DNA of 64,000 nt from positions 192,001 to 256,000 of the IMG/VR virus record IMGVR_UViG_3300050156_000143; one strand, given 5' to 3'. Origin of the DNA: a virus. Its lineage: Duplodnaviria; Caudoviricetes. Positions 16,644 to 54,836 of the stretch are shown here, one piece after another (positions within the stretch are counted from its first letter, which is position 1; every line of letters begins with the position of its first letter). Below the pieces are notes generated by a model. That model saw only the letters and a program-made list of their open reading frames with translations. It searched no databases and was not told where the DNA came from. The translations under genes and the position numbers were made by a program.

Positions 16644-16649
16644 TAAATA
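16644..16649 (+). promoter_or_regulatory. putative late promoter TAAATA, 4 nt before ATG 16654
   Basis: same motif and spacing at 8 starts in the window; resembles T4 late promoter TATAAATA. Confidence 0.7.
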
Positions 16650-16653
16650 CATC

Positions 16654-16839
16654 ATGAAAACTTCAGAAGTCACCCAACCCTCTCTCAAAATTTTGGCCGA
16701 AACCTTTGATCAAACTCAGTCTGGATTCTTGACGGAAGACCTGATCAATGTCACTCAAGTGGTGAAATGGTCTGCACCAATGTCTAGCGACGATTTGGAT
16801 TGCTTTTTGCAACAATGTGGGGTCAATCTTGAAGGTTGA
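16654..16839 (+). CDS. small acidic protein upstream of RelE-like gene (possible antitoxin or head-targeted peptide)
   Basis: 61 aa, MKTSEV N-terminus, overlaps the next ORF. Confidence 0.65.
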   Translation: MKTSEVTQPSLKILAETFDQTQSGFLTEDLINVTQVVKWSAPMSSDDLDCFLQQCGVNLEG

Positions 16840-17170
16840 ATTCCAAGTTTGTGACCTGTTTGTAAAAACGCTGAAAGCAAACCCGCAAGTTGTAAAAACG
16901 TTTATGCAATTCAAGGCGGCAAAAGCAACAAATCCTACCGCAGCATTTGGATCAAGTGATTACCCTTTCAGGCATTCTTTTCTGAAGGGGTATATTCACG
17001 CCAAATTGACATTCGATGTGTCTATCATATACAGCATTTCCGGCGGTGATTCAAAGGTGATAAAACTTTATGGGATTTTTAGCCACGATGATTCTGGAAC
17101 GGGTCAACCGCCTAATCTCAATCGTCAACAATCCCTTGGTAAAAAACTTGGAAATCAGCAGTTCACATGA
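16817..17170 (+). CDS. RelE/YafQ-like mRNA interferase
   Basis: DYPF.HSFLKGYIHAKLTFDVSIIYSI...KLYGIFSH resembles YafQ/RelE core; start GTG 16817 or TTG 16829. Confidence 0.65.
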   Translation: MGSILKVEFQVCDLFVKTLKANPQVVKTFMQFKAAKATNPTAAFGSSDYPFRHSFLKGYIHAKLTFDVSIIYSISGGDSKVIKLYGIFSHDDSGTGQPPNLNRQQSLGKKLGNQQFT

Positions 17171-17721
17171 TGCAATATGCAGCCCTACGCAATTTACGAA
17201 AAACCAATATGGTGAACGATGGCACTCGAACGCTGTCTGAATCGATTGTTGTGTGGGAAGTCGGCGTGGCTTTTGATGATTTTGTGAAAGCCACCAAGGA
17301 TGAACATTTCGTATTGATCGGTGGGTTGGCGTTGAGCTTTTACGTTAAACCGAGAACGACCACCGATGTTGATGTCTTGTTTTTATCGGACGGTGATATT
17401 CCAGCGTCATTGGATAAATTTAACCACCACAGTGGTGCGTTTGAGCATAAGATGACTGGTGTTGAGGTTGAAGTTCTATCTCCAACGGCAATCAATCTGC
17501 CTCAACACATTGCAGAACACATTTTTGCAACTGCGCGAAAAGTTGACGGAGTTAAAATTGCCTCACCTGCTGGCCTAGTGGTGTCAAAACTCGGGCGCTT
17601 CAATCGGCAAGATCAAGCAGACATTGAATCACTGTTGAAATATGAGAAGTTCAACATTGACGAATATCATGTGCCCCCATTGTGGGAAGAACGGTTTCGG
17701 TCAATTGAGGCAACATTATGA
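17167..17721 (+). CDS. nucleotidyltransferase, AbiEii/MenT-like (DUF6036-type)
   Basis: VLIGGLALSFYVKPRTTTDVDVLF...SKLGRFNRQDQADI. Confidence 0.8.
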   Translation: MMQYAALRNLRKTNMVNDGTRTLSESIVVWEVGVAFDDFVKATKDEHFVLIGGLALSFYVKPRTTTDVDVLFLSDGDIPASLDKFNHHSGAFEHKMTGVEVEVLSPTAINLPQHIAEHIFATARKVDGVKIASPAGLVVSKLGRFNRQDQADIESLLKYEKFNIDEYHVPPLWEERFRSIEATL

Positions 17722-18146
17722 GCAATTTGATGGAATCTGCCAGGTCATTGATGTTACTGGCTCACAAGGGCCAACGGGATCGGGGCGGAAAACCGTATCA
17801 CCTTCATCCCGAACATGTTGCGAATAGCTTATGCACTGATGATGAAGAATTGTTTTGTATCGCATTACTGCACGATGCCAAAGAAGATGGTGGGATCACT
17901 GATGAAATGATGTCAGCTCACGGTATGACTCCCCGTGTGGTGGCCGGGGTAAACGCATTGACTAAAATCCCCGGACAGTCGTTGGAAGAATATAAAACCA
18001 CTGTGATGAGTAATGCCGATGCGACCATAGTTAAACGCGCCGACTTGACGCACAACATGGATTTGACCAGACTGAAAAAAATTACCCAAAAAGATATTGA
18101 CAGAAATGTGCAGTATCAAAGTTTCTTAAACCAGCTCAACCAATAG
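17718..18146 (+). CDS. stand-alone HD-domain (p)ppGpp hydrolase-like (SAH/Mesh1 family)
   Basis: AHKGQRDRGGKPYHLHP...ALLHDAKED...VKRADLTHN. Confidence 0.88.
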   Translation: MSNLMESARSLMLLAHKGQRDRGGKPYHLHPEHVANSLCTDDEELFCIALLHDAKEDGGITDEMMSAHGMTPRVVAGVNALTKIPGQSLEEYKTTVMSNADATIVKRADLTHNMDLTRLKKITQKDIDRNVQYQSFLNQLNQ

Positions 18147-18156
18147 GAGAGCAATT

Positions 18157-18921
18157 GTGGACTATGCTGATCGCTTAAAATCACTCGATCTTAAATACAA
18201 AATTGGTATCGGGGTCGCCCTCATCGTGCTGGCACCAGCACTTATCCTGTTATTGAAGTCGTTGATTGCCACCATCGCCATTGGTGCAGTGTGTCTAGCA
18301 ACGATCAATTTTGCACCAGTTTTCTCGCAGAAACTGGCAAATTGGAAGTTGGCGGCAACCATTGATGAAGCGCGTAAACGTCCAATCATCGATGCGACCA
18401 GCGTGTTGGATAAAAAGCAACGCGAATTCGATGAATCGGTCATCAAGGTAAAAGCCGCAACGGGCGCACGTGATACTTTTATCGAAAAATGTCGTGAATT
18501 CTCCAAACAATACCCCCACCGGGCAGATGAGTTTCACAAACGTGCGGAACAATTTGCAATTCGGGTGGAGAAGCTGAAAGTTAAATTGGCTGAGTTCAAA
18601 GTCACCATTGACAATGGTCGCAAGGTGGTGCAGGAAATGAGCGCCTATTATGAAATGACCAAGGCACTGGATGCAGCGAATGCCGCTATCAATATGGGTG
18701 AAATGAACTCAAGCGACCAGATTCGTCTGGATACTGCTTGGAACAGTGTGTTGCAACAAATGAATAGCTCGTTTGCTGATTTGGAGATTGCGGAGGCTCT
18801 GGCAAAAGACCCGGAAGCACCACTTCCAGCTCAACCTACGTCACCAAAGATGCCGCAACTTGAACAGCCACAGGTGAACCCTGCTGCCGGACTGTTTGCC
18901 AAAATGAAACAATCTCGGTAA
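18157..18921 (+). CDS. membrane-anchored coiled-coil protein (PspA/IM30-like)
   Basis: two N-terminal TM helices then ~180-aa helical coiled coil; AGGAG SD. Confidence 0.6.
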   Translation: MDYADRLKSLDLKYKIGIGVALIVLAPALILLLKSLIATIAIGAVCLATINFAPVFSQKLANWKLAATIDEARKRPIIDATSVLDKKQREFDESVIKVKAATGARDTFIEKCREFSKQYPHRADEFHKRAEQFAIRVEKLKVKLAEFKVTIDNGRKVVQEMSAYYEMTKALDAANAAINMGEMNSSDQIRLDTAWNSVLQQMNSSFADLEIAEALAKDPEAPLPAQPTSPKMPQLEQPQVNPAAGLFAKMKQSR

Positions 18922-18947
18922 AACAGTCGGGTATAGCTTGAGCGTCG

Positions 18948-19277: not shown

Positions 19278-19290
19278 ATTTCACTGATTA

Positions 19291-19719
19291 CTAGGCAGCC
19301 GATTGACCAGTGCTGCCAATTCGTTTGATTGCACCGTCGATTGTTGCCATGCTGTCATCAAAATCGTCGTCGTTGTCTTTGATACGATCTAGAGCGGTGT
19401 TGATGGATGAGATGCCGTCGTCAAACCCATCAGCAACATTATCTGCCATCAATTGTTTTTCAATGCGTTTGAGCGCACCACGAACTTTGTTCATGTTGAC
19501 CATAGTAGCTGACCGCCATTTTTTTCGGTCTGCTGGGTCTTTGAATTTGTTCACAATGGCAAGTGCTTTCTTGCAGTGAGTCATGCGTTTGATTGCGTCA
19601 TCGATGTCGGAAATCTGGGAGGCATCAACAACTTCCTGGAGTTGTTCAAGACCATGAGAGTAACTCTCATCGAGACGGCGCACATTGGCAAGTTTTAAGA
19701 GTTGAGTAAGTTCATCCAT
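19291..19719 (-). CDS. hypothetical late protein
   Basis: TAAATA (19724-19729, minus) 4 nt before ATG; RLDES motif near N-terminus. Confidence 0.75.
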   Translation of the reverse strand: MDELTQLLKLANVRRLDESYSHGLEQLQEVVDASQISDIDDAIKRMTHCKKALAIVNKFKDPADRKKWRSATMVNMNKVRGALKRIEKQLMADNVADGFDDGISSINTALDRIKDNDDDFDDSMATIDGAIKRIGSTGQSAA

Positions 19720-19855
19720 TTGTTATTTAGGATAGGAGCGAATATATGTTATATCGGGTAGTTTTCAGTGTGCTTATCATGGTGACAATTGGTGCCACCG
19801 TAGCATTCCAACAGGGTGTTGACCTCGTGGGTATCGTCAAAACTGTAATTTCACA

Positions 19856-22766: not shown

Positions 22767-22773
22767 AGATCAA

Positions 22774-23798: not shown

Positions 23799-24055
23799 AA
23801 TACTCTCTGAGCGACGCTATCTTAGACTTCCATCCAATTTTGGCCAAGTCCTGGCGGGACACTTTAGTCAACATCCAGACCGCAGTACACACTGGTTTGG
23901 ATGTTTGTGTGCTAACATTCCCACCAGAGTTCGACGCTCGTCTACTCAACGACATCCGACACCGACTGATCGCCGATTGCTACATTGTGACTGCCCCGTC
24001 AAAACACAATGGCAACTGGGCGATTGAAGTGAGTGGGTGGGCAATTTTATCGTAA
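23795..24055 (+). CDS. hypothetical protein ending IEVSGWAILS
   Basis: GTGA-coupled to previous gene. Confidence 0.6.
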   Translation: MKYSLSDAILDFHPILAKSWRDTLVNIQTAVHTGLDVCVLTFPPEFDARLLNDIRHRLIADCYIVTAPSKHNGNWAIEVSGWAILS

Positions 24056-24075
24056 CCTTAGTAAAAGGACAAACC

Positions 24076-26271
24076 GTGGAAAACAAAGAATTGAAACTGG
24101 TCATTGACTATGCGACGAAAACTGCAAAAGAAAATAAAGCAGAATATTGCACCAGCGAGCACTTTTTGCTCGCATTGTGTGCTTTTGATCCGTTTCTGAA
24201 AAAGGCGCTCGAATTTGGTGCGGATGTATCCAACATGGTGACGGAAATCTCTGAGCACCTGAAATGCCTCCCCACGGTTGAAAAGCGTAGTGAGGCCGGT
24301 ATCGCCACTGCTGGTTTCACACGGGTGGCGCAACGCGCCTATGTGCAAGCAAACGCTCAAACCCGTGAAGTGGGCGTGGCTGACATGTTTATCGCCATCG
24401 TGGGCGAAAAGGATTCTCACGCTGCCTATTTCTGCAACAAATATGGGCTGACGCACGCAGAATTCTACCCGTTCTTGACTGGTGTATCGACTACAAGTTC
24501 CCCTGCCGATGTCGCAAAGGCATCCAAAGTGTTGGAGCAATATTGCGAGAATTTGACCGCAAAGGCAGCTACTGGGGGTATTGAGCCAGTGATTGGCCGA
24601 GAAACCGAGATTGACACGATTTTCCATGTGTTGGCTAAGAAATACAAACCCAATGTGTTGTTGGTGGGCGACCCTGGCGTGGGCAAAACGAAGATCGCTG
24701 AGGGGATTGCACTCAAGATTCATGAAAAAACGGTGCCGACTTTCATTGAAAATCGTGAAGTTTGGACACTGGACATCGGTTCATTGCTCGCTGGCACCAA
24801 ATACCGGGGTGAGTTTGAAGAAAAGGTGAAAGAGATTCTGACGGCATTGCAGGATAAGGGCAATGTCATTTTGTTCATCGATGAGGCGCACTCCATGCGT
24901 GGGGCGGGTAGTTCGTCCGGTGGCGGCCCTGATATGTCCAACATGTTCAAACCTGCTTTGGCCAGCGGCAAGATCATGGTGATCGCCAGCACTACCTGGG
25001 ATGAGTTCTATCAGTCGTTTGAGAAAGACCATGCACTGATGCGCCGTTTCGAGCGGGTGTCGGTGGATGAACCTGGCCGAGAATCTGCTATCAAAATTGT
25101 TTCCGGCGTCGCGCCCCGTTTGGAAGAGTTTCACGGCGTTGTGATTCCCGATGAAGTGGTGGTGTCGGCAGTGGACAACGCAATTCGGTATTTGCCAACT
25201 ACAAAAAACCCGGATAAGTCCATCGGATTGCTTGACGCAGTTTGCACCCGATACCGCGTAGCTGGCGAAAAGGGTACTGTCACTGTGCAAGACGTGATCG
25301 CTCAAATTGAGAAACAAACTGGTATCGCTGCTGATAAGTTGAGCGGCGACAATGTGGAGCGAATGGCCAATCTGGAAAACAACTTGAAGGGCAAACTGTT
25401 TGGACAGGATGCCGCCATCGGGAAAATTGTTGACCGAGTTTGCCTGGCATTCAGTGGCATGGGTTCCCAGAAAAAGCCTATGGCCAGCTTTTTGTTTACC
25501 GGGCCAAGCGGTTGTGGCAAAACTGAATTGTGCAAGCAACTGAGCGAAATGTTGGCAATGCCGCTCATCCGATACGACATGAGCGAGTTCAGCGAGCGCC
25601 ACACTCTGAGTGCGCTGATTGGATCACCTCCTGGGTATGTTGGTTATGGTGAAGGTGCAGCCGGGAATGGCAGGTTGATCACGGATGTTCGCAAACGGCC
25701 ATATTCCATCTTGCTGTTTGATGAGTTCGAGAAAGGCCACCCAGACATTTACAACATTTTTCTGCAAATGTTGGACGAGGGAACTGTCACCTCATCCGCA
25801 GGAATGAAAGTTGATGTCAGCAATTGCATCATCGTGATGACCACCAACCTGGGCGCGGCGGACAACGAGCGTGCAGTTATCGGGTTTGCAAATCAGGCAC
25901 GTAACGCTGAAGACAAGGCGCTGAAAGACTTCATGCGCCCAGAGTTGCGAAATCGATTAGATGAAATTGTGAAGTTTAATAAACTTTCCCCAGAATCGGT
26001 TAAAGAAGTAGTTCGCAAGTTTCTGGGCATCTTGCAGAAACAAGTGGTGGACACGGGCATCACTTTGTCATACACGGACAATGTGGTTGACATGATTGCG
26101 GAAAAGGGGTTTGACCCAGTGTTAGGAGCACGTCCGATTAGTCGCAAAATTGATGAACTCGTGCGGGTGCCGTTGAGCCGCAAGGTGATGTTTGAACGGT
26201 TGCGAAACGCTGAAGTGCATGTTTCTGTCAGTGACGGTAAATTTGAGTTCAACGTGACGCAAAAGGTGTAA
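24076..26271 (+). CDS. clpA: ClpA-type AAA+ unfoldase
   Basis: N-domain EHFLLAL; GDPGVGKT, LFIDEAH, GTKYRGEFE; GPSGCGKT, PPGYVGY, LLFDEFEK; IGF loop; no middle domain. Confidence 0.95.
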   Translation: MENKELKLVIDYATKTAKENKAEYCTSEHFLLALCAFDPFLKKALEFGADVSNMVTEISEHLKCLPTVEKRSEAGIATAGFTRVAQRAYVQANAQTREVGVADMFIAIVGEKDSHAAYFCNKYGLTHAEFYPFLTGVSTTSSPADVAKASKVLEQYCENLTAKAATGGIEPVIGRETEIDTIFHVLAKKYKPNVLLVGDPGVGKTKIAEGIALKIHEKTVPTFIENREVWTLDIGSLLAGTKYRGEFEEKVKEILTALQDKGNVILFIDEAHSMRGAGSSSGGGPDMSNMFKPALASGKIMVIASTTWDEFYQSFEKDHALMRRFERVSVDEPGRESAIKIVSGVAPRLEEFHGVVIPDEVVVSAVDNAIRYLPTTKNPDKSIGLLDAVCTRYRVAGEKGTVTVQDVIAQIEKQTGIAADKLSGDNVERMANLENNLKGKLFGQDAAIGKIVDRVCLAFSGMGSQKKPMASFLFTGPSGCGKTELCKQLSEMLAMPLIRYDMSEFSERHTLSALIGSPPGYVGYGEGAAGNGRLITDVRKRPYSILLFDEFEKGHPDIYNIFLQMLDEGTVTSSAGMKVDVSNCIIVMTTNLGAADNERAVIGFANQARNAEDKALKDFMRPELRNRLDEIVKFNKLSPESVKEVVRKFLGILQKQVVDTGITLSYTDNVVDMIAEKGFDPVLGARPISRKIDELVRVPLSRKVMFERLRNAEVHVSVSDGKFEFNVTQKV

Positions 26272-26906: not shown

Positions 26907-26939
26907 GCTAAATATCGCAAAGGATATCGATCACCCCCT

Positions 26940-28175: not shown

Positions 28176-28768
28176 AAAATAGTGGCGACATCGACATTGA
28201 TGTGGGAAATAGAGACCAATTACTTGCATTAATCGACCATAATCCAGCCAAAATTTGCACACAAGATGGGGACAGGCGGCATGGATCGGGAATATACGTT
28301 ACCGACATTCCATATGATTTTGTGAATGAAATTGCGACCATCGATTACCAAAGTGCGGAAACACGCGGTTACTTCAAGTTGGATATATTGAACGTGTCTC
28401 TATACTCAGAAATAACAAACACGGATGAGCTAGAATCGCTGATGGTTCCACCAAAATGGGAGTCACTGGGTTCACGAGAATTTGTCGAACAGTTGACACA
28501 TCTTGGTCAACACTATGATCTCTTACAAGAACTCCCCCCGATAACTTCCATAGTGGAACTGGCAATGGCTCTAGCCATCATTCGCCCCGCTAAACGCCAT
28601 CTTGCTGGAAAACCTTGGGAAATCGTGAAAAAAACGATTTGGCAAACTACTCCAGGTCAATATGCCTTCAAAAAGGCGCATGCGATAGCTTACGCTCATT
28701 TGGTAGTAGTCAATATGAATATGGCGTCAAGGAATTTTGCGAACCATTATGACCCCTTTTCTCTTTGA
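28172..28768 (+). CDS. minimal DNA polymerase III alpha (DnaE, family C) catalytic core
   Basis: GDIDIDV, HGSGIY, GYFKLDIL, LAIIRP, YAFKKAHAIAYA are DnaE signature motifs, in only ~198 aa. Confidence 0.85.
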   Translation: MKNSGDIDIDVGNRDQLLALIDHNPAKICTQDGDRRHGSGIYVTDIPYDFVNEIATIDYQSAETRGYFKLDILNVSLYSEITNTDELESLMVPPKWESLGSREFVEQLTHLGQHYDLLQELPPITSIVELAMALAIIRPAKRHLAGKPWEIVKKTIWQTTPGQYAFKKAHAIAYAHLVVVNMNMASRNFANHYDPFSL

Positions 28769-29104
28769 TTTTTTTACACCAAGAGCATGGATGCTGCATA
28801 TCGGCCCGTGAAGTATGGTCAGATTTTTGGTGACAAACGTTTTCAAAAATGGCTTGAATTCGTGCCATTCATGGCGTAAAAACAAGTGAATTGGCACAAT
28901 TCGGTTACTTCCCCACCACCACGCATCACCAAGTTCTAGAAACCGTTTCCTGGCGTCTGAGTTGGTAATGGCCGAATAATCATAAAGTGACGTGACGGAT
29001 GTATCCTGGTTTTGTACAATTCCCACATAATCAACACCAGCGTATGTGCAAATTGTGATAAAGGGGTAATGTTCAGCTAGTGTTGTTAAGTAGTTTTCTT
29101 GCAT
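28727..29104 (-). CDS. conserved hypothetical protein
   Basis: YPFIT...YVGIVQN...FLELGDAWWW.SNR.VPI.LFL; TAAATA 9 nt upstream. Confidence 0.75.
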   Translation of the reverse strand: MQENYLTTLAEHYPFITICTYAGVDYVGIVQNQDTSVTSLYDYSAITNSDARKRFLELGDAWWWGSNRIVPIHLFLRHEWHEFKPFLKTFVTKNLTILHGPICSIHALGVKKSKRKGVIMVRKIP

Positions 29105-29145
29105 TTGTGCGGTTATTTAGGTGGCATCTGTCGGTTAAATACCTT

Positions 29146-29865
29146 ATGTATGCAACAACCGTCTATATTTACAAACCTCGTCAGCAGGTGATTGTATATT
29201 CTGGTAACAGTCCTAGGAAATTTCAGCAAATGTACGCAAATAATCTCAAACTGCATCGCGGCGTTGATAACAAAATTCAATTCCGATTTCTGAACCAAGA
29301 GCAAAAACCTATTGATGTGTCAGATAGAGAAATCACTTGTCGAATATTGGATTCAACCAATTCTCAGGTCATATTGCAAAAAACGTTGTCAGGATTCTTG
29401 CCAGTCACGGGCATCATGGAGTTGGAGGTGTTGTCCTCCGATTTGGTTGATATAAAACCACAGAATTGCTTTTATTCACTTAGTTTCGCCGATGGCGACG
29501 GTGTGTACCCAGTATTTGTGGATACGTTGGGTGGATCAAAAGGTAAGATTGAGATAATGGATGACATATTGCCCACACATGTTGAATCCAACCTTGTTGG
29601 CATACCGTCTACCTCGGGTGCGATTTATTATTCCAGTGAATTTTCACCAGACAAATTTTCTACTACGATTCAAGTCGTTTTGACTGGATATTCTGGCTAC
29701 ATTGTCGTAGAAGGGTCAGTTAATTCGACCACATGGTACACAGTCACGCAGGTCTCGTTGGTTGCCAGTGATGGTGCTATAATTTCAATCGATGGGTTCC
29801 ACCCCAAAGTCAGAGTCAAATTTCAACCCACACAAGGCGAACCTACCCGCATTCTGTATCGATGA
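29146..29865 (+). CDS. hypothetical late (probably structural) protein
   Basis: TAAATA 29136-29141, 4 nt before ATG 29146; LHRGVDNKIQFRFLNQEQKPID. Confidence 0.7.
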   Translation: MYATTVYIYKPRQQVIVYSGNSPRKFQQMYANNLKLHRGVDNKIQFRFLNQEQKPIDVSDREITCRILDSTNSQVILQKTLSGFLPVTGIMELEVLSSDLVDIKPQNCFYSLSFADGDGVYPVFVDTLGGSKGKIEIMDDILPTHVESNLVGIPSTSGAIYYSSEFSPDKFSTTIQVVLTGYSGYIVVEGSVNSTTWYTVTQVSLVASDGAIISIDGFHPKVRVKFQPTQGEPTRILYR

Positions 29866-30873: not shown

Positions 30874-32254
30874 CCATGAAGTCCAAGAAATATTCTTGCG
30901 GCTTATGGTCACAAACCCGGAATTGTATACTAGAACATTAAACATCTATAACCCGGAGAATTTTGATAAAAAATTCAGAGCTGCTGCACGGCTCATTCGA
31001 GAACACGCTGACAAATACCGGGCATTGCCATCGTCGCTTCAAATTAAGGCCACCTGTGGCGTATCAATTGATCCGGTTGAAGATTACCAAGACGCGGATG
31101 GGCAATGGTTCTTAGACAACTTTGAAGCGTTCACCAAACGCCAAGAACTTGAACGGGCCATTTTGGAATCAGCCAAACTGCTAGAAAAGGGGGAGTTTGG
31201 GACAGTAGAAACCCTTATTAAAAAAGCGGTGCAAATATCTTTGCAGAAGGATATGGGCACTGATTATTTTGCCGATCCTCGTGCTCGGCTTTTGGCATTG
31301 AAATCCACCAACGCACAGTTATCAACCGGGTGGGTAGTTTTAGATGACTTGCTCAATGGTGGGTTTAACCGTGGGGAACTACAGTTATTCACGGGTGGGT
31401 CAGGTGCGGGTAAGAGTTTGTTTATGCAAAATCTTGCAGTCAATTATGTTACCACGGGGTATAACGTAATTTATATCACCTTGGAACTAAACGAAGGACT
31501 ATGTGCAGCACGTATAGATTCCATGATGGCAGACGTTGGCTCAAAAGAGTTGTATCAACGTTTGGATGATGTGGTTTCACGGGTTGCAGAAATTGGAAAA
31601 ACTGCTGGGTCATTTCAACTAAAATACGTACCAGCACAAAGTACCATCAACGATATTCGTGCATATTGCAAAGAGTGGCAGATTCAATCAAAGAAAAAGA
31701 TAGATGTTATCTGTCTTGATTATTTGGACTTGTTGATGCCCTATGGGGCAAAAGTCAGTGCAAGTGATTTGTTTGTTAAAGACAAATATGTGGCAGAAGA
31801 GGCTCGCAATCTTGCAAAAGAATTGAACGTCATTATGATTACTGCCAGCCAATTGAATCGCAGCGCAGTAGAGGAAACCGAATTTGACCACAGTCATATC
31901 TCGGGTGGCATCTCCAAAATCATGACAGCCGACAACATGTTTGGCATTTTTACATCCAGGTCAATGAAAGAGCGTGGCAAATATCAATTGCAGATGATGA
32001 AAACTCGTAGTAGCGACGGTGTGGGTAAAAAATGTGATTTACTTTACAACAACAAGACGCTCAGGATTTTGTCACCGGCCTCAGACAAATTTGGATCAGG
32101 TGGAAGCGGATCATTGATCGATCAAATGGTGGGCAAGATACGCAATGGTGAAGTGCAAGGCGATAGCGGTGAGATCACAGAGGTGCCAAAAGTGAAGGGT
32201 GACATCCAAAGTGCAAAATTAAAGCAAATGCTAGCCGCACGTAAAACCACCTAA
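30857..32254 (+). CDS. replicative helicase (T4 gp41/DnaB family)
   Basis: GGSGAGKS, YITLEL, LDYLDL, TASQLNR, SGGISK. Confidence 0.93.
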   Translation: MLQEFNHEVQEIFLRLMVTNPELYTRTLNIYNPENFDKKFRAAARLIREHADKYRALPSSLQIKATCGVSIDPVEDYQDADGQWFLDNFEAFTKRQELERAILESAKLLEKGEFGTVETLIKKAVQISLQKDMGTDYFADPRARLLALKSTNAQLSTGWVVLDDLLNGGFNRGELQLFTGGSGAGKSLFMQNLAVNYVTTGYNVIYITLELNEGLCAARIDSMMADVGSKELYQRLDDVVSRVAEIGKTAGSFQLKYVPAQSTINDIRAYCKEWQIQSKKKIDVICLDYLDLLMPYGAKVSASDLFVKDKYVAEEARNLAKELNVIMITASQLNRSAVEETEFDHSHISGGISKIMTADNMFGIFTSRSMKERGKYQLQMMKTRSSDGVGKKCDLLYNNKTLRILSPASDKFGSGGSGSLIDQMVGKIRNGEVQGDSGEITEVPKVKGDIQSAKLKQMLAARKTT

Positions 32255-32268
32255 ATAAATCATCAAAT

Positions 32269-34268: not shown

Positions 34269-34330
34269 ATAATATTGGCTTGGCATAAATACCTGTAGAG
34301 CGATGCTCAACAACTTTAAAGGATTATTTT

Positions 34331-41373: not shown

Positions 41374-41391
41374 TTGCATCTTAAATAGCGG

Positions 41392-41781
41392 ATGAAATAT
41401 CGCTGCTATTCACTATACGACATAACCGTCACGGGGGTGAATAATAGGCGGCTACCGCCTCACATCCCAGCGGATCAACTTAGTGGGTGGTATCATTTGC
41501 GCAACACTCAATGCAATTTTGATACCATCGTTCAAGTGTTGGGGTTAAGAACCCAGGTTGAGGTGCTGGGTGATCCAATCAAACTGGATTTTTCCATATT
41601 GGGAAACCCGTGTTGGTCAGTTTTGTTTCAAACTTATCACGAAGGGGTGTACGACACCGATGCTGGAAAATTGACAGCATTGTATTCAGATTGCGAAAAT
41701 GTTCCAATGTTAAAAACTCCGGAAACGGCACATTTAAGTGGATTTCTTTCAACTTCATCCATATTCTTTGAGGAAATATGA
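41392..41781 (+). CDS. conserved hypothetical late protein
   Basis: TAAATA 4 nt upstream; YSLYDITVTGV...RNTQCNFDTIVQVLGLR. Confidence 0.75.
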   Translation: MKYRCYSLYDITVTGVNNRRLPPHIPADQLSGWYHLRNTQCNFDTIVQVLGLRTQVEVLGDPIKLDFSILGNPCWSVLFQTYHEGVYDTDAGKLTALYSDCENVPMLKTPETAHLSGFLSTSSIFFEEI

Positions 41782-42092
41782 CTTTTCATTACACTGAGAC
41801 CGAAAACGGTACTGTACTGCGTGGGCACAATTTGGAAATTACCTTTTCCAACAAGCGGCTGGCTGACATTTGGGTCAATTTAACGAACTCTGGCAAATTT
41901 GCTGAGGCAGATTGTTTTCGCACAGTGGAACGACTGGTGACAGGGTACAAAAATGATGTGGCGATTCAGACATACTTACTAAACAAGACCAATAAGTCTA
42001 TTCATGAAATAAAGTTGGCAGAGTCTGAAAGCAAATACGAAATGAATAGAACACGGTTAGATCAACTAATCGCAAAATACCACCACAACTAA
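41778..42092 (+). CDS. hypothetical protein
   Basis: 104-aa coupled ORF. Confidence 0.65.
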   Translation: MTFHYTETENGTVLRGHNLEITFSNKRLADIWVNLTNSGKFAEADCFRTVERLVTGYKNDVAIQTYLLNKTNKSIHEIKLAESESKYEMNRTRLDQLIAKYHHN

Positions 42093-42099
42093 ATACAAA

Positions 42100-42744
42100 A
42101 TGAAACTTACTGACATGAATTTACCCGCTAAACAAGCTGGGATAAAAACCTTGAGAGAAAATTTTGGAATGGAGTTTGATCCATCGCGCTTGTCCAAGTC
42201 GCAGACAAAGCGTTATTTGACTCAAATTGAGGGCATGATTTCAGAAGCCAAATCTACCCAATCTGTCAACCGTGAAACTAACCCGACTTATCTGAAATTG
42301 AAGGTGATGGAATCGGTGTTATTGGCTCAATTGCGTGAGAAAATTAGTGAACCATATCCAGACATTATCATCGAATCTGATTCGCGTGAATACATCGGAA
42401 AAGCACAAACGGTCATGGCCGTTCAAGATGTATTGGACGAATTGCAGGGCATGATCGTGGATATATCAGATATTACCGTGAAAAAACTGCCGTCCATCGT
42501 TGACACCGCAAAAATGCAAATTGGTGGCACCGAGAGTAACGAGTTCAATACGCAAGCCACTGCTGCGATGCGTACATTGGCTGATGCACTAACCCAAGCA
42601 AAAAGTGATATGCAAGCTGCACTAGACGTCTTGACTGGACAATCACAGCCAGAATTTGATCTCCCCGATGAAGGCCCGGATGATGATTTTGAGGAACCAG
42701 GGCCACCGAAGATGACCAATCCATTGGGGCGAGGCCGCCGATAA
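42100..42744 (+). CDS. probable prohead core/scaffold-type protein
   Basis: TAAATA 4 nt upstream; helical, acidic C-tail ending LGRGRR; IIIES motif. Confidence 0.55.
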   Translation: MKLTDMNLPAKQAGIKTLRENFGMEFDPSRLSKSQTKRYLTQIEGMISEAKSTQSVNRETNPTYLKLKVMESVLLAQLREKISEPYPDIIIESDSREYIGKAQTVMAVQDVLDELQGMIVDISDITVKKLPSIVDTAKMQIGGTESNEFNTQATAAMRTLADALTQAKSDMQAALDVLTGQSQPEFDLPDEGPDDDFEEPGPPKMTNPLGRGRR

Positions 42745-43211: not shown

Positions 43212-43879
43212 ACTATCTGCCCAATACTTTCAAGTATGAGCCTCTAAGCCGCGAACCCATCAATGGTCAGCGGCTTTATCTTTTGCCTGATGGCTCAAAA
43301 CTCCCTTCCGTGACCACCATTTTAGACAAAACCAAATCACATGATGCCAAACGTAAATTAGAAAATTGGATTACCAAGGTGGGAACAGATCAAGCAGATT
43401 GCATCAAACGTGATGCCAGCGATCGCGGAACCTTGATGCACCGTTATTTGGAACATTATGTCGAGCACGGTGTTATGTACGGTTGCGACCTTAGCCACAA
43501 AATGGCCGAAACAATTGTTCAGAATGGATTTCACCAGATAAGCACTGTGTTTGGACAAGAAGTTCCATTATATTTTCCAGGAATATATGCGGGAACATCG
43601 GACTTGGTGTGTGAGCATGACGGTGAAATCATCATCGGAGACTATAAACAGTCAAATAAACCAAAGAAGCGAGAATGGATTGGCGACTATTTTATGCAAA
43701 TTGCTGCATACGCTGAAGCCCACAACGAAATACATGGCACGAACATATCTCGCGGGGTAATATTTATGTGTACCCCATCGTTGGAATATCAAGAATTCAT
43801 CTTGGAAGGTCGCGGCTTCATCAAATTCAGGAACATGTGGTGGGATAGAGTTACCCGGTACTACCAGAATTTTGCCTAA
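43208..43879 (+). CDS. PD-(D/E)xK exonuclease (Cas4/lambda-exo-like)
   Basis: LPSVTTIL...RGTLMH...YAGTSDLV...IGDYKQS...QIAAYA. Confidence 0.9.
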   Translation: MNYLPNTFKYEPLSREPINGQRLYLLPDGSKLPSVTTILDKTKSHDAKRKLENWITKVGTDQADCIKRDASDRGTLMHRYLEHYVEHGVMYGCDLSHKMAETIVQNGFHQISTVFGQEVPLYFPGIYAGTSDLVCEHDGEIIIGDYKQSNKPKKREWIGDYFMQIAAYAEAHNEIHGTNISRGVIFMCTPSLEYQEFILEGRGFIKFRNMWWDRVTRYYQNFA

Positions 43880-43898
43880 ATAATCCACAGGAATTATT

Positions 43899-46037: not shown

Positions 46038-46101
46038 AGTGCGATTCCCTAAATACCCATGATCGCATTCGTTGCGTGACCTAGAACGTCAGGAGAATAT
46101 T

Positions 46102-46524
46102 ATGGGTCGTCCGTTAAAAATCGCAAAAGCTGGAACCATCGATTATGGGTACAGTAACGTATATGGTGTAGTTGGTGGAGATACTGGGTTAACCTCGGCC
46201 ACCATTCAATGTCGTGTCAAAATTGGAAGCAAGTCTGAAGCAAATGGGTTTATCGTGAAGCAAAAGGGTAAACGCAAATTTTTGGTCAGTGATGGCACCA
46301 ACACTGGGGTGTGTTTGCTGTCAGATTTGGCAAACTCTGCATTGACCGCTGACACCATGACAGTGACCGCCACATTGGTGGACACTTCTACTGTGCGCTT
46401 GGCGCATTTCACCAACACGCATGGCACCGATTTCTCAAATGTGCGTTATATTCTGACTTTCGGTGTTGCAAGTGCTGCCCCAGCAGGTTCTGGCTACGCT
46501 GTTGCAACCGTGACGTCAGCATAA
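46102..46524 (+). CDS. probable virion structural protein
   Basis: TAAATA 46050-46055, AGGAG SD; MGRPLK...FIVKQKGKRKFLV. Confidence 0.65.
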   Translation: MGRPLKIAKAGTIDYGYSNVYGVVGGDTGLTSATIQCRVKIGSKSEANGFIVKQKGKRKFLVSDGTNTGVCLLSDLANSALTADTMTVTATLVDTSTVRLAHFTNTHGTDFSNVRYILTFGVASAAPAGSGYAVATVTSA

Positions 46525-46923
46525 TGAAACGAGTGCAGCCATCTTGGTCTGCACGGTTTCTAGGTTTAGCGTAGAAAACAAACCTGGATGCAATGGGGAT
46601 GGATATACATCATGTTGCATCCAACAATACGCACAGTGTTCATTGTTCAATTTGGGCACAAATTCCGCGTCTACTGGGTGAAATAAGGTGTGGTACGTGA
46701 AGTCAGAATTGGTAAATTTTTGTATGGGGATAAGTTTGCCCTCTAATTTTATCCCAAGTTCTTCGTTACATTCCCGCTTGATCGCATCCGATAGTGTTTC
46801 ACCTTGTTCAAATTTGCCCCCAGGGATGCCCCAAGTGCCAGCAGTGCGAGCTTCAGTACGCATCACATAAAGTATGCGTTTAGTCTGCTTTGAAAAGATA
46901 AAAACACCCACCGAAACTCTCAT
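46516..46923 (-). CDS. NUDIX hydrolase
   Basis: GGKFEQGETLSDAIKRECNEELG Nudix box; PKLNNEH. Confidence 0.92.
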   Translation of the reverse strand: MRVSVGVFIFSKQTKRILYVMRTEARTAGTWGIPGGKFEQGETLSDAIKRECNEELGIKLEGKLIPIQKFTNSDFTYHTLFHPVDAEFVPKLNNEHCAYCWMQHDVYPSPLHPGLFSTLNLETVQTKMAALVSLC

Positions 46924-48263
46924 AGCACAATACTATAGCTCCCCTCTGGATAATATCCCTCCCACGCTTTAGTCCATTCACTGTTATAGTAACGGTATTG
47001 AACACCTGATGTAAGGTTGGTGACATATTGCGCAGACGTTGCAGCCACACTATCGAAGGCCACGCTCCAAGCTGAACCATTGTATTGAATAACATCATTC
47101 ACGTTGGCTAAAATATTTCCCCAAACCGGGTTTTCGCCCATGTCGCTCAAAATGAGATACCGCTGTCCTGTAACTGGTGCTGGAAGACCATGTCCTGGCC
47201 ATTTGACCATAGGATCAATTATCATATTGATCGCCGTCAATGTGTTTTGTGGCAGAGTGTCGGTGTCTATCGTGTAAGTCAATAGTCGCTCGTCCGCATC
47301 ATCAAAATCTATAGTTCCAACGATCTCACTCCCAGTGTGTGGATTTTCTATCCAAATTTGCGAAATACCGGGACGAACCACTCCATACTCGATCAATACC
47401 TGACGCCAATCCACGTTAGAATTATTTTGGGATGGCAAGTCCAACGATTCGGCAGTTGGCATCTGTTGTGGTATTAACTGTAGACTATCTCCCAATAACA
47501 ATATTTTATACCCATATGGAGTAATCTTTTGGCGAGTGCCCAACAGCAAATCATCGTCTTGCATATCAGAGAAAGTATTTCCATCGAAAATACTAGCCAC
47601 GATCTTGTGAATAATTCCCAGCTTTTTCAATTTTGCTGGTGACGATATCCAAATCGGCATATAAAATTTCCATGACATGATGTCGATATTATTGCCGTTA
47701 CCTTGTGGAATCGATCTGGAAGTATAGGTTATCCCGTCTTGATAAACCACAGACAATGAAGTCCAGTCAAAGTAATTATCGGAAGACTGTATTTCCAAGC
47801 TGGGGTTAAACAGGACACCAAGTTGTTCGATTAGTTGGAGTTTTTGCTCCGTGTTTGAAGTCCAAATATCCACTGAAATTCTCAGTGTATACGGCACAGG
47901 CATGATTCGTTCTAACGTGAACGCATCACCCTGAGCTTGCTCATATTCTCCAGTGATGGAATTGTATTTGCGTTGACGTATTGTTTTCACATCTACGAAA
48001 TACGGGTCTTGTGTGCGTTTTTGATCATATTCCAGCCCATTGATGTAATAGGTAATCATTGGGGCCGAGTTCATGGATGAGGCAGAATTGTTATTCAACG
48101 CTGCTAAACCTTGGCGAGAAACGTCGCTATATTGTACCGGAACCCTGACTAAAATGTCATTGCCAGCTTGGTCAACGCCCTTGACCACTTGCCAATTAGA
48201 AAATATTTTGGCAAATTGAATCAAAAATCTGCGAATTTGCTTGTCGTAAAAAAATGCTGCCAT
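46920..48263 (-). CDS. tail sheath stabiliser/completion protein (T4 gp15-like)
   Basis: FFYDKQIRRFLIQF...RIMPVPY.L...KLQLIEQL..LFNP. Confidence 0.8.
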   Translation of the reverse strand: MAAFFYDKQIRRFLIQFAKIFSNWQVVKGVDQAGNDILVRVPVQYSDVSRQGLAALNNNSASSMNSAPMITYYINGLEYDQKRTQDPYFVDVKTIRQRKYNSITGEYEQAQGDAFTLERIMPVPYTLRISVDIWTSNTEQKLQLIEQLGVLFNPSLEIQSSDNYFDWTSLSVVYQDGITYTSRSIPQGNGNNIDIMSWKFYMPIWISSPAKLKKLGIIHKIVASIFDGNTFSDMQDDDLLLGTRQKITPYGYKILLLGDSLQLIPQQMPTAESLDLPSQNNSNVDWRQVLIEYGVVRPGISQIWIENPHTGSEIVGTIDFDDADERLLTYTIDTDTLPQNTLTAINMIIDPMVKWPGHGLPAPVTGQRYLILSDMGENPVWGNILANVNDVIQYNGSAWSVAFDSVAATSAQYVTNLTSGVQYRYYNSEWTKAWEGYYPEGSYSIVL

Positions 48264-48264
48264 A

Positions 48265-49794
48265 TTAGTCTGGTTGAATCTTTAACAATGTTGAAAGCGC
48301 TTGTCTTTCGGGAATAACTCCGTTTTGTGTGGTTATGGTGGTAGTAGTGTTGATAAAAGTTGATCGCAATGAGGTATCATCCACCGTGAATCCAGTTGAC
48401 GTTCTAATGTCATCCGACTTTGCTACCCACCGTTTTCCATCAAACATGAACAATCTAGCGGGCTTATAATCAGTTCTTACAAACCAGGTGCCACGTGGTT
48501 GATTATCGGGAAATGATGTTCCAGTATCGGCCACCACACCATTCGGGGCGTCTATTGAAGAAGTCATATAGCCATATAATTCACCAAATCCTTCTGCATT
48601 TGCTGTGCTCATTACATACGCAAACCGTGGATCAACCGTGGGGTCAGTCGTTGTAAAATTGCTTGACGCGGTTCCAATCACGGTGGACAACACGCAACTT
48701 TCACCAGCAGTTCTGCCAGAGTTCCCTATCACTTCGGGTGGAATTTCACACAACTCTAACCGCAAAATTTGCGACGGTGATATCACTATTTGGTCGTATT
48801 GAGACAACGATGCGGCAGAAATTCTGATCACTGCACTGGGCGAATAGGTGCTACTGGTGATAATATCCAATCTGCCAGCGATCTGAACCGGAGTTGGAGT
48901 TTGATATAAAGGAGTCCCAGCAGTTTCACTTGGCACAAGGTACAATTGAGTGCGATCGTAACCCGACCTCGGAACATCATTGATGGCTTGCTCAATGAGT
49001 GCATCATTGATTTTAATGTTGTTATTATAGGTTGAAAGGATATCAGTTAAAGACAAGGTAGTATCTAATTGCCAATAATCAGTATCAGTCACCGGAGTAT
49101 TTGCTGGAACATTCTGGGTTGCAATATAGGTCTTATCACCGTAGGTCACTGTGTATCCAGGCCGATAAGTCAAGGTGCTATCCCATTGGCCCAGATAGTT
49201 ATCTTGTTGAACTGGTTTATTCAAAATGGTAGAAAACTCTTGCACGTCACTGAGCGGTTCACATTTGATTCTCCATAAATGTGGATACCACGTTGACGAA
49301 AACCCTTCTGAAGCATAGTTTCCATCAGTGACATGGTAATATCGTCTAAGTCCAATCGGGATTTCCTCATTCAATGGATGATAATCGGTCAAGTGCGGCA
49401 GTTCGATGACGTCACCGACCATCAATTTCCTACCAAGATGGTCAAGCATGTTGTTATAATGCACTGTGATGAAGATGACGTCATTGGTCAAAAACAATCC
49501 AAACTGCGACATATCAAAGTCGAGGTTTTGCACATTGTAGTGACCACGGATTACATAAACGTCGTTATCATATTTTCTATTCCTGTTTTCTAGGAAGAGA
49601 AGATCGCCAACGTTTGTTGGTTTAAGATCGTCATAGGTGGGCTGAGTGGCATCAGTTGTGGTGGAAGTCACTGGCCCAAGATACTTATGCACGAACAAAT
49701 CAGTCCCGCCCACAATGAATTGCTCTTTGACTGTACGGTCAATAAAGCGGTAATCATTGGATTTTTGTTGGCGGTATAGTGAAAGTCTTGGCAT
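48265..49794 (-). CDS. neck/head-closure protein (T4 gp14-like) with extension
   Basis: MPRLSLYR...DLLFLENRNRKYD...GRKLMVGDVIELPHL...YPHLWRIKC; TAAATA 4 nt upstream. Confidence 0.75.
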   Translation of the reverse strand: MPRLSLYRQQKSNDYRFIDRTVKEQFIVGGTDLFVHKYLGPVTSTTTDATQPTYDDLKPTNVGDLLFLENRNRKYDNDVYVIRGHYNVQNLDFDMSQFGLFLTNDVIFITVHYNNMLDHLGRKLMVGDVIELPHLTDYHPLNEEIPIGLRRYYHVTDGNYASEGFSSTWYPHLWRIKCEPLSDVQEFSTILNKPVQQDNYLGQWDSTLTYRPGYTVTYGDKTYIATQNVPANTPVTDTDYWQLDTTLSLTDILSTYNNNIKINDALIEQAINDVPRSGYDRTQLYLVPSETAGTPLYQTPTPVQIAGRLDIITSSTYSPSAVIRISAASLSQYDQIVISPSQILRLELCEIPPEVIGNSGRTAGESCVLSTVIGTASSNFTTTDPTVDPRFAYVMSTANAEGFGELYGYMTSSIDAPNGVVADTGTSFPDNQPRGTWFVRTDYKPARLFMFDGKRWVAKSDDIRTSTGFTVDDTSLRSTFINTTTTITTQNGVIPERQALSTLLKIQPD

Positions 49795-49830
49795 ATCCTA
49801 TTTAGGTATATGAGTTTTAAGGATTGAGTA

Positions 49831-50979: not shown

Positions 50980-50980
50980 T

Positions 50981-51577: not shown

Positions 51578-51764
51578 GTTTATACGCCCCCACTCTCCGA
51601 TCCTTGACCGAGACGGTTTTTGCAGAATGTGTGATGAGAAAATTAACCGTGATGACGCAAAAGTGGTCACGTGGTATTCACATCGTAATCGAGGGATGAC
51701 CATCATTTTGTGCAAACCGTGTATACAAAAGTTAGCAAATATGATCGAAAAGGACAATGAATGA
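51574..51764 (+). pseudogene. small zinc-finger protein split by a frameshift at the C5 run 51587-51591
   Basis: ATGA-coupled start 51574 and ATGA-coupled stop 51764 are in different frames; the second frame has CRMC...CKPC. Confidence 0.55.
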
Positions 51765-52516: not shown

Positions 52517-52558
52517 CGTGGTGTAAAGAGGGGCGTGGTGAACATCATTAAATAATGG

Positions 52559-53605
52559 ATGCTATGTGAAAAGATCACCACCCCCAACTTACTCCAGTCG
52601 CTTTCGTATGCCATATTACAAACATTGGCTGAGCAATACAAAACTGGAAATTGCAATATAAGGTACGCCACTAATGTCTATGACCGGATCGTCCCATCCG
52701 TCGCTATATCTGACATTCGTCTCCCAATATCAATTCGCGAATCCAGTGACGAGGACTTCCTAACGTTTATAAAAACCAACGAGAATTTGCGAATTAAGAT
52801 GCGAGCGCAAGTAGATACTGGATTTGTTTCAGTTGACGGGGAGTTTTTTGCAAGAACGAATCTCATCGAGTTAAGGGTGACCCCACAGTTCATGGACAAA
52901 TTTGACGAAACCTTTGACCCGCACAAGTTGGGGTCAGTGTTAACCCATGAACTAACCCACGCATATGATAATTGGATTTCAAAAGAAAAATATACACACA
53001 ATAAACTGTCAATGACCGGATTGAGAGCGCAAGGCCATGCGACCGATATGAATTTGTCCCCGGAAGATCGTGTCAAACATATAAAAGCATATCGTGGTTC
53101 ACCCCATGAAATCAATGCCAGATTTTATCAATCTATTCATACAATCCCAACCCCGAATACAGTCAGTTTGCGTGACTTTGTGTTTGATTTTGCACGCACG
53201 TTCGACGGTTTTGAGGATTTGACCAGCGAAGACAGAAAGAGAATTCTATCCAGGGTCGGTGCATATTGGGCAAGCCAAAATCCCACACGTCGGTCAGTCA
53301 ATTTGCAGCCAATTGTTGAACGATTGAATGATAAGTTAAACGGCCTGGCTACTGTTCAACTGAAATCTGCCGGGAGAGTTAGCGTAGAAGTTTCCCTATC
53401 GGCGAGCGACACGGATATGAGTGCTGCAATAAAACGCATTTGTAAATTTGCCGATACTTACCACCAAACTGTCGAAATAGAATCCATCCCTCAAATGATC
53501 GCGCGTGAATTTGACTTCAAGAAAAATGCCGGGAGAACCAAACGATTTGATTTGTCAGTACATACTATTGCGTATCGTGAGCCAAAGCCTAGACAATCGG
53601 TGTGA
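52559..53605 (+). CDS. hypothetical late protein with HExxH zincin motif
   Basis: TAAATA 4 nt upstream; VLTHELTHAYD...PHEINARF. Confidence 0.65.
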   Translation: MLCEKITTPNLLQSLSYAILQTLAEQYKTGNCNIRYATNVYDRIVPSVAISDIRLPISIRESSDEDFLTFIKTNENLRIKMRAQVDTGFVSVDGEFFARTNLIELRVTPQFMDKFDETFDPHKLGSVLTHELTHAYDNWISKEKYTHNKLSMTGLRAQGHATDMNLSPEDRVKHIKAYRGSPHEINARFYQSIHTIPTPNTVSLRDFVFDFARTFDGFEDLTSEDRKRILSRVGAYWASQNPTRRSVNLQPIVERLNDKLNGLATVQLKSAGRVSVEVSLSASDTDMSAAIKRICKFADTYHQTVEIESIPQMIAREFDFKKNAGRTKRFDLSVHTIAYREPKPRQSV

Positions 53606-53638
53606 CGGGTATACTGCGTTAACGATAACGTAACCCAC

Positions 53639-53664
53639 AAAAAAGCGGCCTAGGCCGCTTTTTT
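53639..53664. terminator. bidirectional terminator between convergent genes
   Basis: AAAAAAGCGGCCTAGGCCGCTTTTTT. Confidence 0.9.
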
Positions 53665-53666
53665 CA

Positions 53667-54776
53667 TTAGTGGATGATAAGGTACGTCCCAATGACATCG
53701 TGACGGTTTGCCGAATCGTCACCATCGCCTGGCACCACGATGACATTCCATTTTGGCGTATCACGTTCAGGCAATTCCATCATTTCGCCATAAGTTAAAA
53801 TAGTTGAGTTATCGATGTGATAGGTTGACGCCAACCGAGCTTTGAACTCATCAAATGCAGCATCATCAATGAATTGCATTTTGCCCTCAGCGTTGCGTAT
53901 CAATTTTCTACCAACTTTTTGAATCAGATCGCCAAACATCTTTTCTGGCACCACTCGTGCATGTTTGGTTTTCGTGAAATTGATCTGCTTTTCCTGGGAG
54001 GCTTGCGCTCCTGAGCTAAAATTCATTCTGAAATTTGGCGGACGCTCCGACGTTGCAACTGCCGCAATTTTGGTATATGCGTAAAATCCAACCGTTGGAT
54101 GACGTCTCGCAACTCTGAACGCCATTTCCAAGTATTCTGGACTAAAGAAATCCCCGGCGTCATGCCACCGTACTACAATTTTGCTCCCACGGTTTTTGTG
54201 CTTTTCAATTGCAATTTCAGATGCAATTACTTCCTCGAATCCTTCTGGGTCATTCAACAAAAAGTTCAGCATCTTGGATTGATTCAAGCTGACATTTTTA
54301 AACATGACATAACTACTATCCATTGCGTAGCAAAACGTCTTGCACGCGCCCGCACCTGGACACGTGTCAACTACAACGAATTCGCCAGTGGATTCATTTA
54401 CCGCCAAACCTTTTAAGGCCGGTAACCCCACATTGTAAAAAACCGAGGTGGAACCATCGCTGTGCTGCATTTTTTCATTTTGTTTTAAGATTGTGGTAGG
54501 CTTTGTGGTGATGGCTGCTTTCAATTTTTCCAAATCGTATTTCCTACCTTGGGAATTGACAATTGGTACGTTACTGCTGTGAATATAAGGATACTCGTAT
54601 TTGTCAGTTTTTTCTTTGGATTTGCTCTGGATTCGGCCAACATAGTCATCCAGTTCATCGTGACCAAGTACACGATGTTTTGCGCCCAATAGATCGGCCT
54701 CGGTCAACCCCGAAGAATCATGCACGAATTGTGCCAAACTCACGTAGGTCAAATTGTTTTTAATTTTGTATTTCAT
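53667..54776 (-). CDS. Gp88-like protein
   Basis: TCPGAGACKTFCYA...VRWHDAGDFFS...FYAYTK; start reset to ATG 54776, 4 nt after TAAATA. Confidence 0.8.
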   Translation of the reverse strand: MKYKIKNNLTYVSLAQFVHDSSGLTEADLLGAKHRVLGHDELDDYVGRIQSKSKEKTDKYEYPYIHSSNVPIVNSQGRKYDLEKLKAAITTKPTTILKQNEKMQHSDGSTSVFYNVGLPALKGLAVNESTGEFVVVDTCPGAGACKTFCYAMDSSYVMFKNVSLNQSKMLNFLLNDPEGFEEVIASEIAIEKHKNRGSKIVVRWHDAGDFFSPEYLEMAFRVARRHPTVGFYAYTKIAAVATSERPPNFRMNFSSGAQASQEKQINFTKTKHARVVPEKMFGDLIQKVGRKLIRNAEGKMQFIDDAAFDEFKARLASTYHIDNSTILTYGEMMELPERDTPKWNVIVVPGDGDDSANRHDVIGTYLIIH

Positions 54777-54836
54777 CGTGTATTTAATGTCCCCACACAA
54801 TGGTCAGGTATTGACATTCCGGTGATTCCACAGTGC

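Follow-up and report, generated by a model that had tools for sequence, protein, structure and literature searches.

TAAATA late promoters four or five nucleotides before start codons point to leaderless late messages in an uncultured jumbo phage

The DNA analysed here, referred to as the window, is a stretch of 64,000 nucleotides (nt) covering bases 192001–256000 of the IMG/VR record IMGVR_UViG_3300050156_000143, a phage genome of 277,516 bp with direct terminal repeats and a GC content of 45%, which comes from leaf-litter metagenomes. The portal and tail-completion proteins of this phage are 33–48% identical to their counterparts in Agrobacterium phage Atu_ph07 and Pseudomonas phage PA5oct, which makes the phage an uncultured jumbo representative of the T4 superfamily. 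In its genome the hexamer TAAATA, very likely the core of a late promoter, recurs exactly four or five nt before the ATG of genes (N4 and N5 sites). The host RNA polymerase, carrying a phage-encoded sigma factor of the gp55 type, would read TAAATA as a −10-like core, and transcription from the N4 and N5 promoters would probably begin with the A of the start codon, or no more than 1–2 nt from it, making these late messages leaderless. Messages of this kind, which carry no Shine–Dalgarno (SD) sequence, would be translated by 5′-end-dependent initiation at the terminal AUG. The remaining late promoters, located 9–40 nt upstream, would mostly serve genes preceded by an SD (SD-led genes). Positions below are those of the window unless marked as genome positions.

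The spacing between the hexamer and the start codon is far from random. In the window, TAAATA-N4-ATG occurs eight times, compared to 0.60 ± 0.71 expected from dinucleotide shuffles (maximum 3), and these are the eight sites that an earlier interpretation of the window, made from its letters only (the sequence-only reading), had listed (Table 1). A spacer histogram for the whole genome, proposed there as a check, has a sharp peak at N4: the ATG follows after exactly 4 nt in 28 of the 85 TAAATA copies, whereas the shuffles give 3.1 ± 1.8 (maximum 10). It follows after 5 nt in six copies, and each of the other spacers from 0 to 40 nt is represented by 0–5 copies (four at N3, two at N6). An open reading frame (ORF) of at least 60 amino acids (aa) is opened by 25 of the 28 N4 sites and by all six N5 sites, but by none of the four N3 sites. 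The window and genome shuffles rule out chance as the source of the N4 count. The N4 and N5 proteins of at least 40 aa, 33 in number, fall into 29 sequence clusters, so that duplication of genes or of promoter–gene cassettes fails to explain the count and was ruled out as well. TAAATA is also the top hexamer at positions −10 to −5 of gene starts, with 25 occurrences against eight for the best SD hexamer, GGAGAA, and its one-mismatch variants are not enriched there. The total of 85 copies is lower than the 127 found in shuffles; this depletion was given no weight, since other hexamers with a stop codon, TAATAA among them, are just as rare. About 58 of the copies in the genome are promoter-like, and more than half of these have an ATG at 4 nt (25–28 genes) or at 5 nt (six genes). 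The conserved element consists of TAAATA only. The two bases in front of it are not conserved, sequence logos display no conservation further upstream, i.e. no −35 element, and the window does not contain the complete octamer of T4, TATAAATA.

The placement of the hexamer is that of a promoter. All five minus-strand transcription units of the window open behind it, as the sequence-only reading had observed. At genome positions 171094–171545, TAAATA lies 7 nt ahead of a tightly packed cluster of five tRNA genes (Pro, Lys, Leu, Thr, Ser), which appears to be under late control; two further tRNA genes (Met, Arg) are found 2 kb beyond this cluster. Two N4 genes have the motif 2 and 9 nt behind canonical intrinsic terminators, and back-to-back divergent TAAATA pairs are separated by 31–41 nt from ATG to ATG. 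Since strand-switch units, the tRNA cluster and post-terminator genes are all headed by TAAATA, the hexamer very likely acts as a promoter and not as a translation signal. About 25 additional copies lie 9–40 nt upstream of genes, most of which have an SD.

These locations bear on a scheme in which the promoter is real and the proteins are made mainly from read-through transcripts, by internal SD-independent initiation or by termination–reinitiation, with UAAAUA serving as a landing or coupling site. Many N4 genes do lie within co-directional arrays, and at 7 of 33 sites an upstream ORF of 100 or more codons ends in frame on the TAA of the motif. At the other 26 sites, however, the TAA terminates no upstream frame, and stop–start coupling through the motif was rejected because it covers 7 of 33 sites only. 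Moreover, several of the N4 genes, being the first of strand-switch units or located behind terminators, are out of reach of any upstream transcript. The same hexamer precedes tRNAs, and it also stands 10–40 nt ahead of SD-led genes, at which distance it can have no role in initiation. The read-through scheme is therefore very unlikely.

The genome also encodes a candidate reader of the motif. A gp55-like sigma gene, for which the sequence-only reading had proposed to search the rest of the genome, is located outside the window at genome positions 114297–115112 and encodes a protein of 271 aa. Its product matches phrog_12791 at 1.4e-62 and phrog_234 at 1.8e-21 (T4 gp55 itself matches phrog_234 at 3e-69), and the gene adjoins a gp47-like gene, the same arrangement as in T4. 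T4 gp55 flips A-12, A-9 and A-8 of the promoter into pockets (PMC7892883). The sigma factor described here keeps F86 and the A-9/A-8 pocket residues N13 and T99 of T4 gp55, carries an insertion of ~100 aa behind the N-terminal helix and is missing the C-terminal clamp-binding tail. Residue Y97 of T4 gp55, which stacks on A-12, is F in this sigma and Y in two sister phages; the sister phages with Y97 have GATAAATA, and in the phage described here an A directly before TAAATA is rare and is avoided.

The presence of a gp55 homolog with conserved DNA-base pockets, together with the identity of the motif to the late promoter core of the T4 family, makes it hardly credible that TAAATA acts at the RNA level, either as the operator of a RegA-like translational repressor or as a cleavage site at which mRNAs are trimmed to a leaderless form. 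The fixed distance between motif and start codon is in keeping with such an element, and T4-type phages are known to encode both RNA-binding repressors of translation and site-specific RNases. On the other hand, the divergent pairs and post-terminator sites are exactly where a promoter is needed, and the portal gene of Atu_ph07 has CTAAATA 28 nt upstream of its start codon in combination with a normal SD.

The properties of the start codons are those expected of leaderless genes. For the motif genes (n = 31), anti-SD duplex energies average −0.6 kcal/mol, compared to −1.8 kcal/mol for random sites and −3.5 to −5.5 kcal/mol for other genes, and by this measure the N4 and N5 genes have no SD, which agrees with what had been noted for the eight N4 genes of the window. 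All 31 N4 and N5 starts are ATG, with no GTG or TTG, whereas the SD-led genes start with ATG in 153, GTG in 35 and TTG in 27 cases (~29% non-ATG, based on crude start calls). The N-termini of orthologs are conserved from residue 1 or 2 onwards; hence the ATG is the real start codon and must be part of the mRNA. In T4, the late box TATAAATA spans −13 to −6 (PMC2988020), which puts the A of the ATG at +1 for N5 and at −1 for N4. The sequence-only reading, which had used the same T4 box to place the start at or next to the A of its N4 sites, is supported as to a start near the ATG, but the A would be −1 and not +1 by T4 numbering. If the polymerase starts one base nearer the motif than that of T4, the 5′ end of the N4 mRNAs is the AUG. 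Judged by the distance between promoter and ATG, by the post-terminator sites and by the divergent pairs, the N4 and N5 late messages are likely leaderless.

Related phages provide an independent view of the spacer. A portal profile search of IMG/VR returned at least 579 related stretches. TAAATA lies within 36 nt of the ATG in 63 of 65 distinct portal upstream regions, with spacers of N4 (4 regions), N5 (8), N6 (3), N7 (11), N8 (2) and N12–27 (34). The complete 360-kb genome of one relative, G007, contains 20 N5 and seven N4 sites and none at N6 or N7. The sister contigs G006 and G003 have seven and six N5 sites, and G001 has eight N5 and eight N7 sites. The excess of N4 is small or nil in eight additional relatives. 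Among the genomes sampled, N4 is dominant in the present one only, and the large uncultured clade peaks mostly at N5, which is T4’s own register. At 40 of the 47 N5 sites of relatives (85%) the ATG is preceded by T or C, and at none of them by G, compared to 31–56% T or C in SD-led genes; in base composition, this matches the pyrimidine(−1)/purine(+1) rule for start sites, with a predicted start on the A. In the N7 class, all eight G001 genes and all 11 N7 portal loci have a purine at position 5 of the spacer and a pyrimidine at position 6, a pattern that indicates a start 5 nt past the hexamer and a leader of 3 nt. The N7 spacers of sister phages usually end in ACT before the ATG, and the N6 class is nearly empty. 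Taken together, the N5 and N7 patterns place the start 5–6 nt past TAAATA, which is the position of the A in N4 and N5, and the leader lengths allowed in the sister phages seem to be zero or 3 nt.

Several observations weigh against leaderless initiation at the N4 sites, or against the promoter assignment on which it depends. With strict T4 spacing, +1 of an N4 promoter would fall on the T of its ATG; the start in this phage must therefore lie 1 nt nearer the motif than in T4. The N4 class does not display a pyrimidine at −1: the base is G at 10 of 25 sites and a pyrimidine at 11 of 25. Were transcription to begin on this G, which could be the case, the message would have a 5′-GAUG end with a leader of 1 nt. 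Leaderless mRNAs are poorly translated in bacteria of the Escherichia coli type, and their heavy use for essential genes is unexpected. Neither T4 gp45 nor Pfam PF02916 or PF09116 has a match in the genome, with no search aimed at gp33; since gp45 was not found and the sigma factor has no clamp-binding tail, activation must differ from that in T4. Finally, the timing called late here is deduced from gene content. A search for sequencing runs with RNA of this phage listed none, a result that carries no information on expression.

The first two of these points also suit an arrangement in which TAAATA is a late promoter and the N4 transcripts start 1–4 nt ahead of the ATG, frequently with a G, giving near-leaderless messages. 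A purine start is plausible, and G precedes the ATG at 10 of 25 N4 sites here (e.g. 41382–41394 and 52549–52561) and at 7 of 14 in relatives, compared to 4–16% of SD-led genes; the N7 class of the sister phages implies that 3-nt leaders of the AYN type are tolerated. However, the peak is sharp to one nucleotide (28 sites at N4, four without ORFs at N3, two at N6), the 11 N4 sites with a pyrimidine do not conform, and the relatives, with N5 and a pyrimidine before the ATG, point to a start on the A. Such short leaders are considerably less likely than leaderless messages.

The genes of the leaderless type encode the portal, six or seven virion structural proteins, a GH19 lysin, a GP88-family protein, a five-paralog family with MRLHE-type N-termini and many proteins of unknown function. 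TAAATA is combined with an SD in front of the genes for the tail sheath, tail tube, large terminase, holin, baseplate hub and a 4716-aa virion protein, and the major capsid gene is preceded by a strong AAGGAG and by no TAAATA of its own. The SD is therefore kept by high-copy proteins and low-copy proteins tend to be leaderless, which fits a low-output role of the leaderless layout without proving it; lower protein output would be a likely consequence of this layout. In relatives, the portal gene is short-spaced in 28 of 65 cases, and the sheath and tube genes are SD-led throughout. Other orthologs change their layout, from N4 to N7 to N21, from N4 to N15 with an SD, or from N20 with an SD to N7. 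The partition into leaderless and SD-led genes is only partly stable across orthologs, and the proposal of the sequence-only reading that late genes form a leaderless and a leadered class holds as a description but not as a fixed division, with orthologs switching between N4, N7 and SD-led forms.

It had also been suggested that leaderless translation could resist a shut-off by a RelE-type toxin of the phage or by the host. This idea finds no support. The supposed RelE-like ORF (16817–17170) has no match in a Pfam search, no S21- or IF3-like gene was found that might encode a phage helper of leaderless translation, and SD-led late genes coexist with leaderless ones. As about 25 late promoters serve SD-led genes, SD-dependent initiation must remain active late in infection. 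A broader version is quite doubtful. In it, the clade would use leaderless initiation as a deliberate second route of translation, with a spacer fitted in each lineage to the start-site geometry of its sigma factor and polymerase (N4 here, N5 or N7 in kin). This route would keep the copy number of portal, minor virion and cargo proteins low, and might be favoured late in infection by phage-altered host initiation, these messages being read when SD-dependent host translation is depressed.

Table 1. TAAATA elements of the window with an assigned downstream gene or layout
Element	Position	Strand	Downstream gene	Remarks
TAAATA-N4-ATG	16644–16656	+	61-aa ORF	First gene of operon 16654–18921
TAAATA-N4-ATG	19717–19729	−	142 aa, 19291–19719	Opens one-gene minus-strand unit
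TAAATA-N4-ATG	29136–29148	+	239 aa, start 29146	Divergent from 29114–29119 (−), 41 nt from ATG to ATG
TAAATA-N4-ATG	41382–41394	+	129-aa ORF	G001 ortholog has TAAATA-N4-GTG right behind a T-tract
TAAATA-N4-ATG	42090–42102	+	214 aa, start 42100; weak match to virion structural protein	TAA of motif is stop codon of ORF 41778–42092; G001 ortholog is SD-led, without motif
TAAATA-N4-ATG	49792–49804	−	509-aa virion structural protein	First of three-gene minus-strand unit 46516–49794; orthologs N7 (G001) and N21 (G003)
TAAATA-N4-ATG	52549–52561	+	348 aa (phrog_15811)	
TAAATA-N4-ATG	54774–54786	−	369-aa GP88-family protein	Probable true start 54776; alternative, longer TTG-started ORF would include the motif
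Leadered TAAATA	5963–5968	−	219-aa phosphoesterase-like protein	21 nt to ATG; SD-like AAGGGG
TAAATA	26909–26914	+	Start 26940	25 nt to ATG; AAGGA too distant from ATG for a good SD
Short-leader TAAATA	29114–29119	−	125 aa, 28727–29104	9 nt to ATG; no SD; divergent partner of 29136
TAAATA	32252–32257	+	84-aa virion structural protein	11 nt to ATG; no SD; G001 ortholog N7
TAAATA	34286–34291	+	Start 34331	39 nt to ATG; SD AAAGGA
TAAATA	43877–43882	+	712-aa virion protein	16 nt to ATG; SD CAGGA
TAAATA	46050–46055	+	150-aa ORF, 46072–46524	Orthologs suggest a start ~10 codons downstream, behind AGGAG
TAAATA	59611–59616	+	ORF at 59690	73 nt ahead of ORF

The eight copies of TAAATA further away from start codons are all present where the sequence-only reading had placed them. 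Its description of these as mostly accompanied by an SD-like sequence is correct in part: a well-placed SD is found in some only, the copies with 9- and 11-nt spacers have none, and the last copy stands far from the next gene. The start codon that it had corrected to 29146 is supported by the G001 ortholog of this 239-aa protein, which aligns from residue 4/5 to the N-terminus so defined and has TAAATA-N15 with an SD upstream. Its other corrected start, 54776, is plausible. The minus-strand unit headed by the 509-aa virion structural protein also contains a gp15-like tail completion gene (46920–48263).

Several N4 genes outside the window (genome positions 37491, 123693, 130153, 134992 and 165035) start with M-R/K-L-H/R-E, which is reminiscent of the L-x-E sites for the prohead protease in proteins targeted to the T4 capsid. 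Three members of the five-paralog family (123693, 130153 and 134992) are N4 genes, and the other two, which belong to the N5 class, have N-termini of a different kind. At genome positions 135844–135924, a remnant of 26 aa has the same promoter as the N4 genes and a similar start.

Further features of the window and the genome were noted. The operon 16654–18921, which lies behind an N4 promoter, encodes an AbiEii/DUF6036-type nucleotidyltransferase (17167–17721) and an HD_4 domain protein (17718–18146). ORFs of 414 aa (9477–10721) and 744 aa (24037–26271) are similar to phage transposase families (phrog_12300, phrog_506) and to an ATP-dependent protease family (phrog_4871, 5e-223), respectively. 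Positions 59032–59689, ~650 nt, contain no listed ORF of at least 50 aa; a TAAATA stands at the end of this stretch, and an Rfam search of the window, including these positions, yielded no family. A captured brxA gene (genome positions 163937–164473) encodes a protein 87% identical to a copy in a Rubrivivax metagenome-assembled genome (MAG) and 80% identical to another betaproteobacterial MAG copy, a weak hint that the host might be a bacterium of the Burkholderiales.

The closest known counterpart of these promoters is the late promoter of T4. Both depend on a sigma factor of the gp55 family, predicted as such here, and on a −10-like A/T element that contains TAAATA, with no conserved −35 region. 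In both, the element stands upstream of virion genes on either strand, and the start is expected 5–6 nt past it (PMC2988020; PMC7892883). Unlike T4, in which the 8-bp box TATAAATA is conserved, this phage retains the 6-bp core alone. T4 has no TAAATA-N4-ATG and its late mRNAs carry leaders with an SD, and it employs gp33 and the gp45 clamp, whereas here gp45 was not found and the sigma factor has no tail to bind a clamp. Shortened motifs have precedents: an ATAAATA late motif was predicted in the Rak2-like jumbo phages CBB and GAP32, with a gp55-like sigma and undetected gp33 and gp45 in CBB (PMC5259590), and a CTAAATA-type variant of the late promoter is found in Aeh1 (PMC2988020). With these three, the phage shares membership in the jumbo T4 superfamily, a gp55-like sigma and a shortened, TAAATA-containing motif before structural genes.

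The layout with the short spacer is missing from T4 and from the closest cultured relatives. There is no N4 peak in T4, PA5oct, Atu_ph07, CBB or SCTP-2, and TAAATA-N4-ATG was therefore rejected as a general trait of the T4 family. In CBB, PA5oct, Atu_ph07 and SCTP-2 no spacing peaks beside start codons, and the counts of ATAAATA-N3 to N8-ATG are flat in all five phages. An apparent N5 excess in PA5oct (eight sites) coincides with an annotated start at one of the five sites checked (EST35_0222), and the PA5oct portal gene has no TAAATA motif. Full-text literature searches brought up no account of leaderless late messages in phages of the T4-like or jumbo type.

Leaderless messages are known from other phages. 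Lambda cI is expressed from PRM as a leaderless mRNA, and the Thermus phage P23-45 has leaderless middle and late genes. As proposed here, a −10 element stands immediately in front of the start codon, an SD is missing and initiation depends on a 5′-terminal AUG. In those phages the promoters are read by the host sigma-70 or sigma-A, whereas a phage sigma of the gp55 type would serve ~30 genes here. Lambda has one such gene only, and the Thermus host of P23-45 commonly has leaderless mRNAs, unlike the setting of the present phage, whose remaining genes use the SD normally. A more distant analogy is offered by the late promoters of poxviruses, in which a TAAATG initiator, i.e. a TAAAT-type late element fused to the start codon, likewise drives late genes of a large DNA virus; the polymerase is unrelated, the host is eukaryotic, and slippage provides the transcripts with a 5′ poly(A) head.

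Confirmation would make this the first lineage of the T4 superfamily in which a promoter of the gp55 type is fused to start codons, and more than half of the late transcription units, including that of the essential portal, would be leaderless amid normal use of the SD elsewhere in the genome. The natural series of N4, N5 and N7 spacers in hundreds of related environmental phages would form a test bed for start-site choice by a minimal sigma factor, and may also inform how well such bacteria translate 5′-terminal AUGs. In practical terms, the rule of TAAATA followed by 4 or 5 nt and ATG would correct gene starts that ORF callers misplace in this clade.

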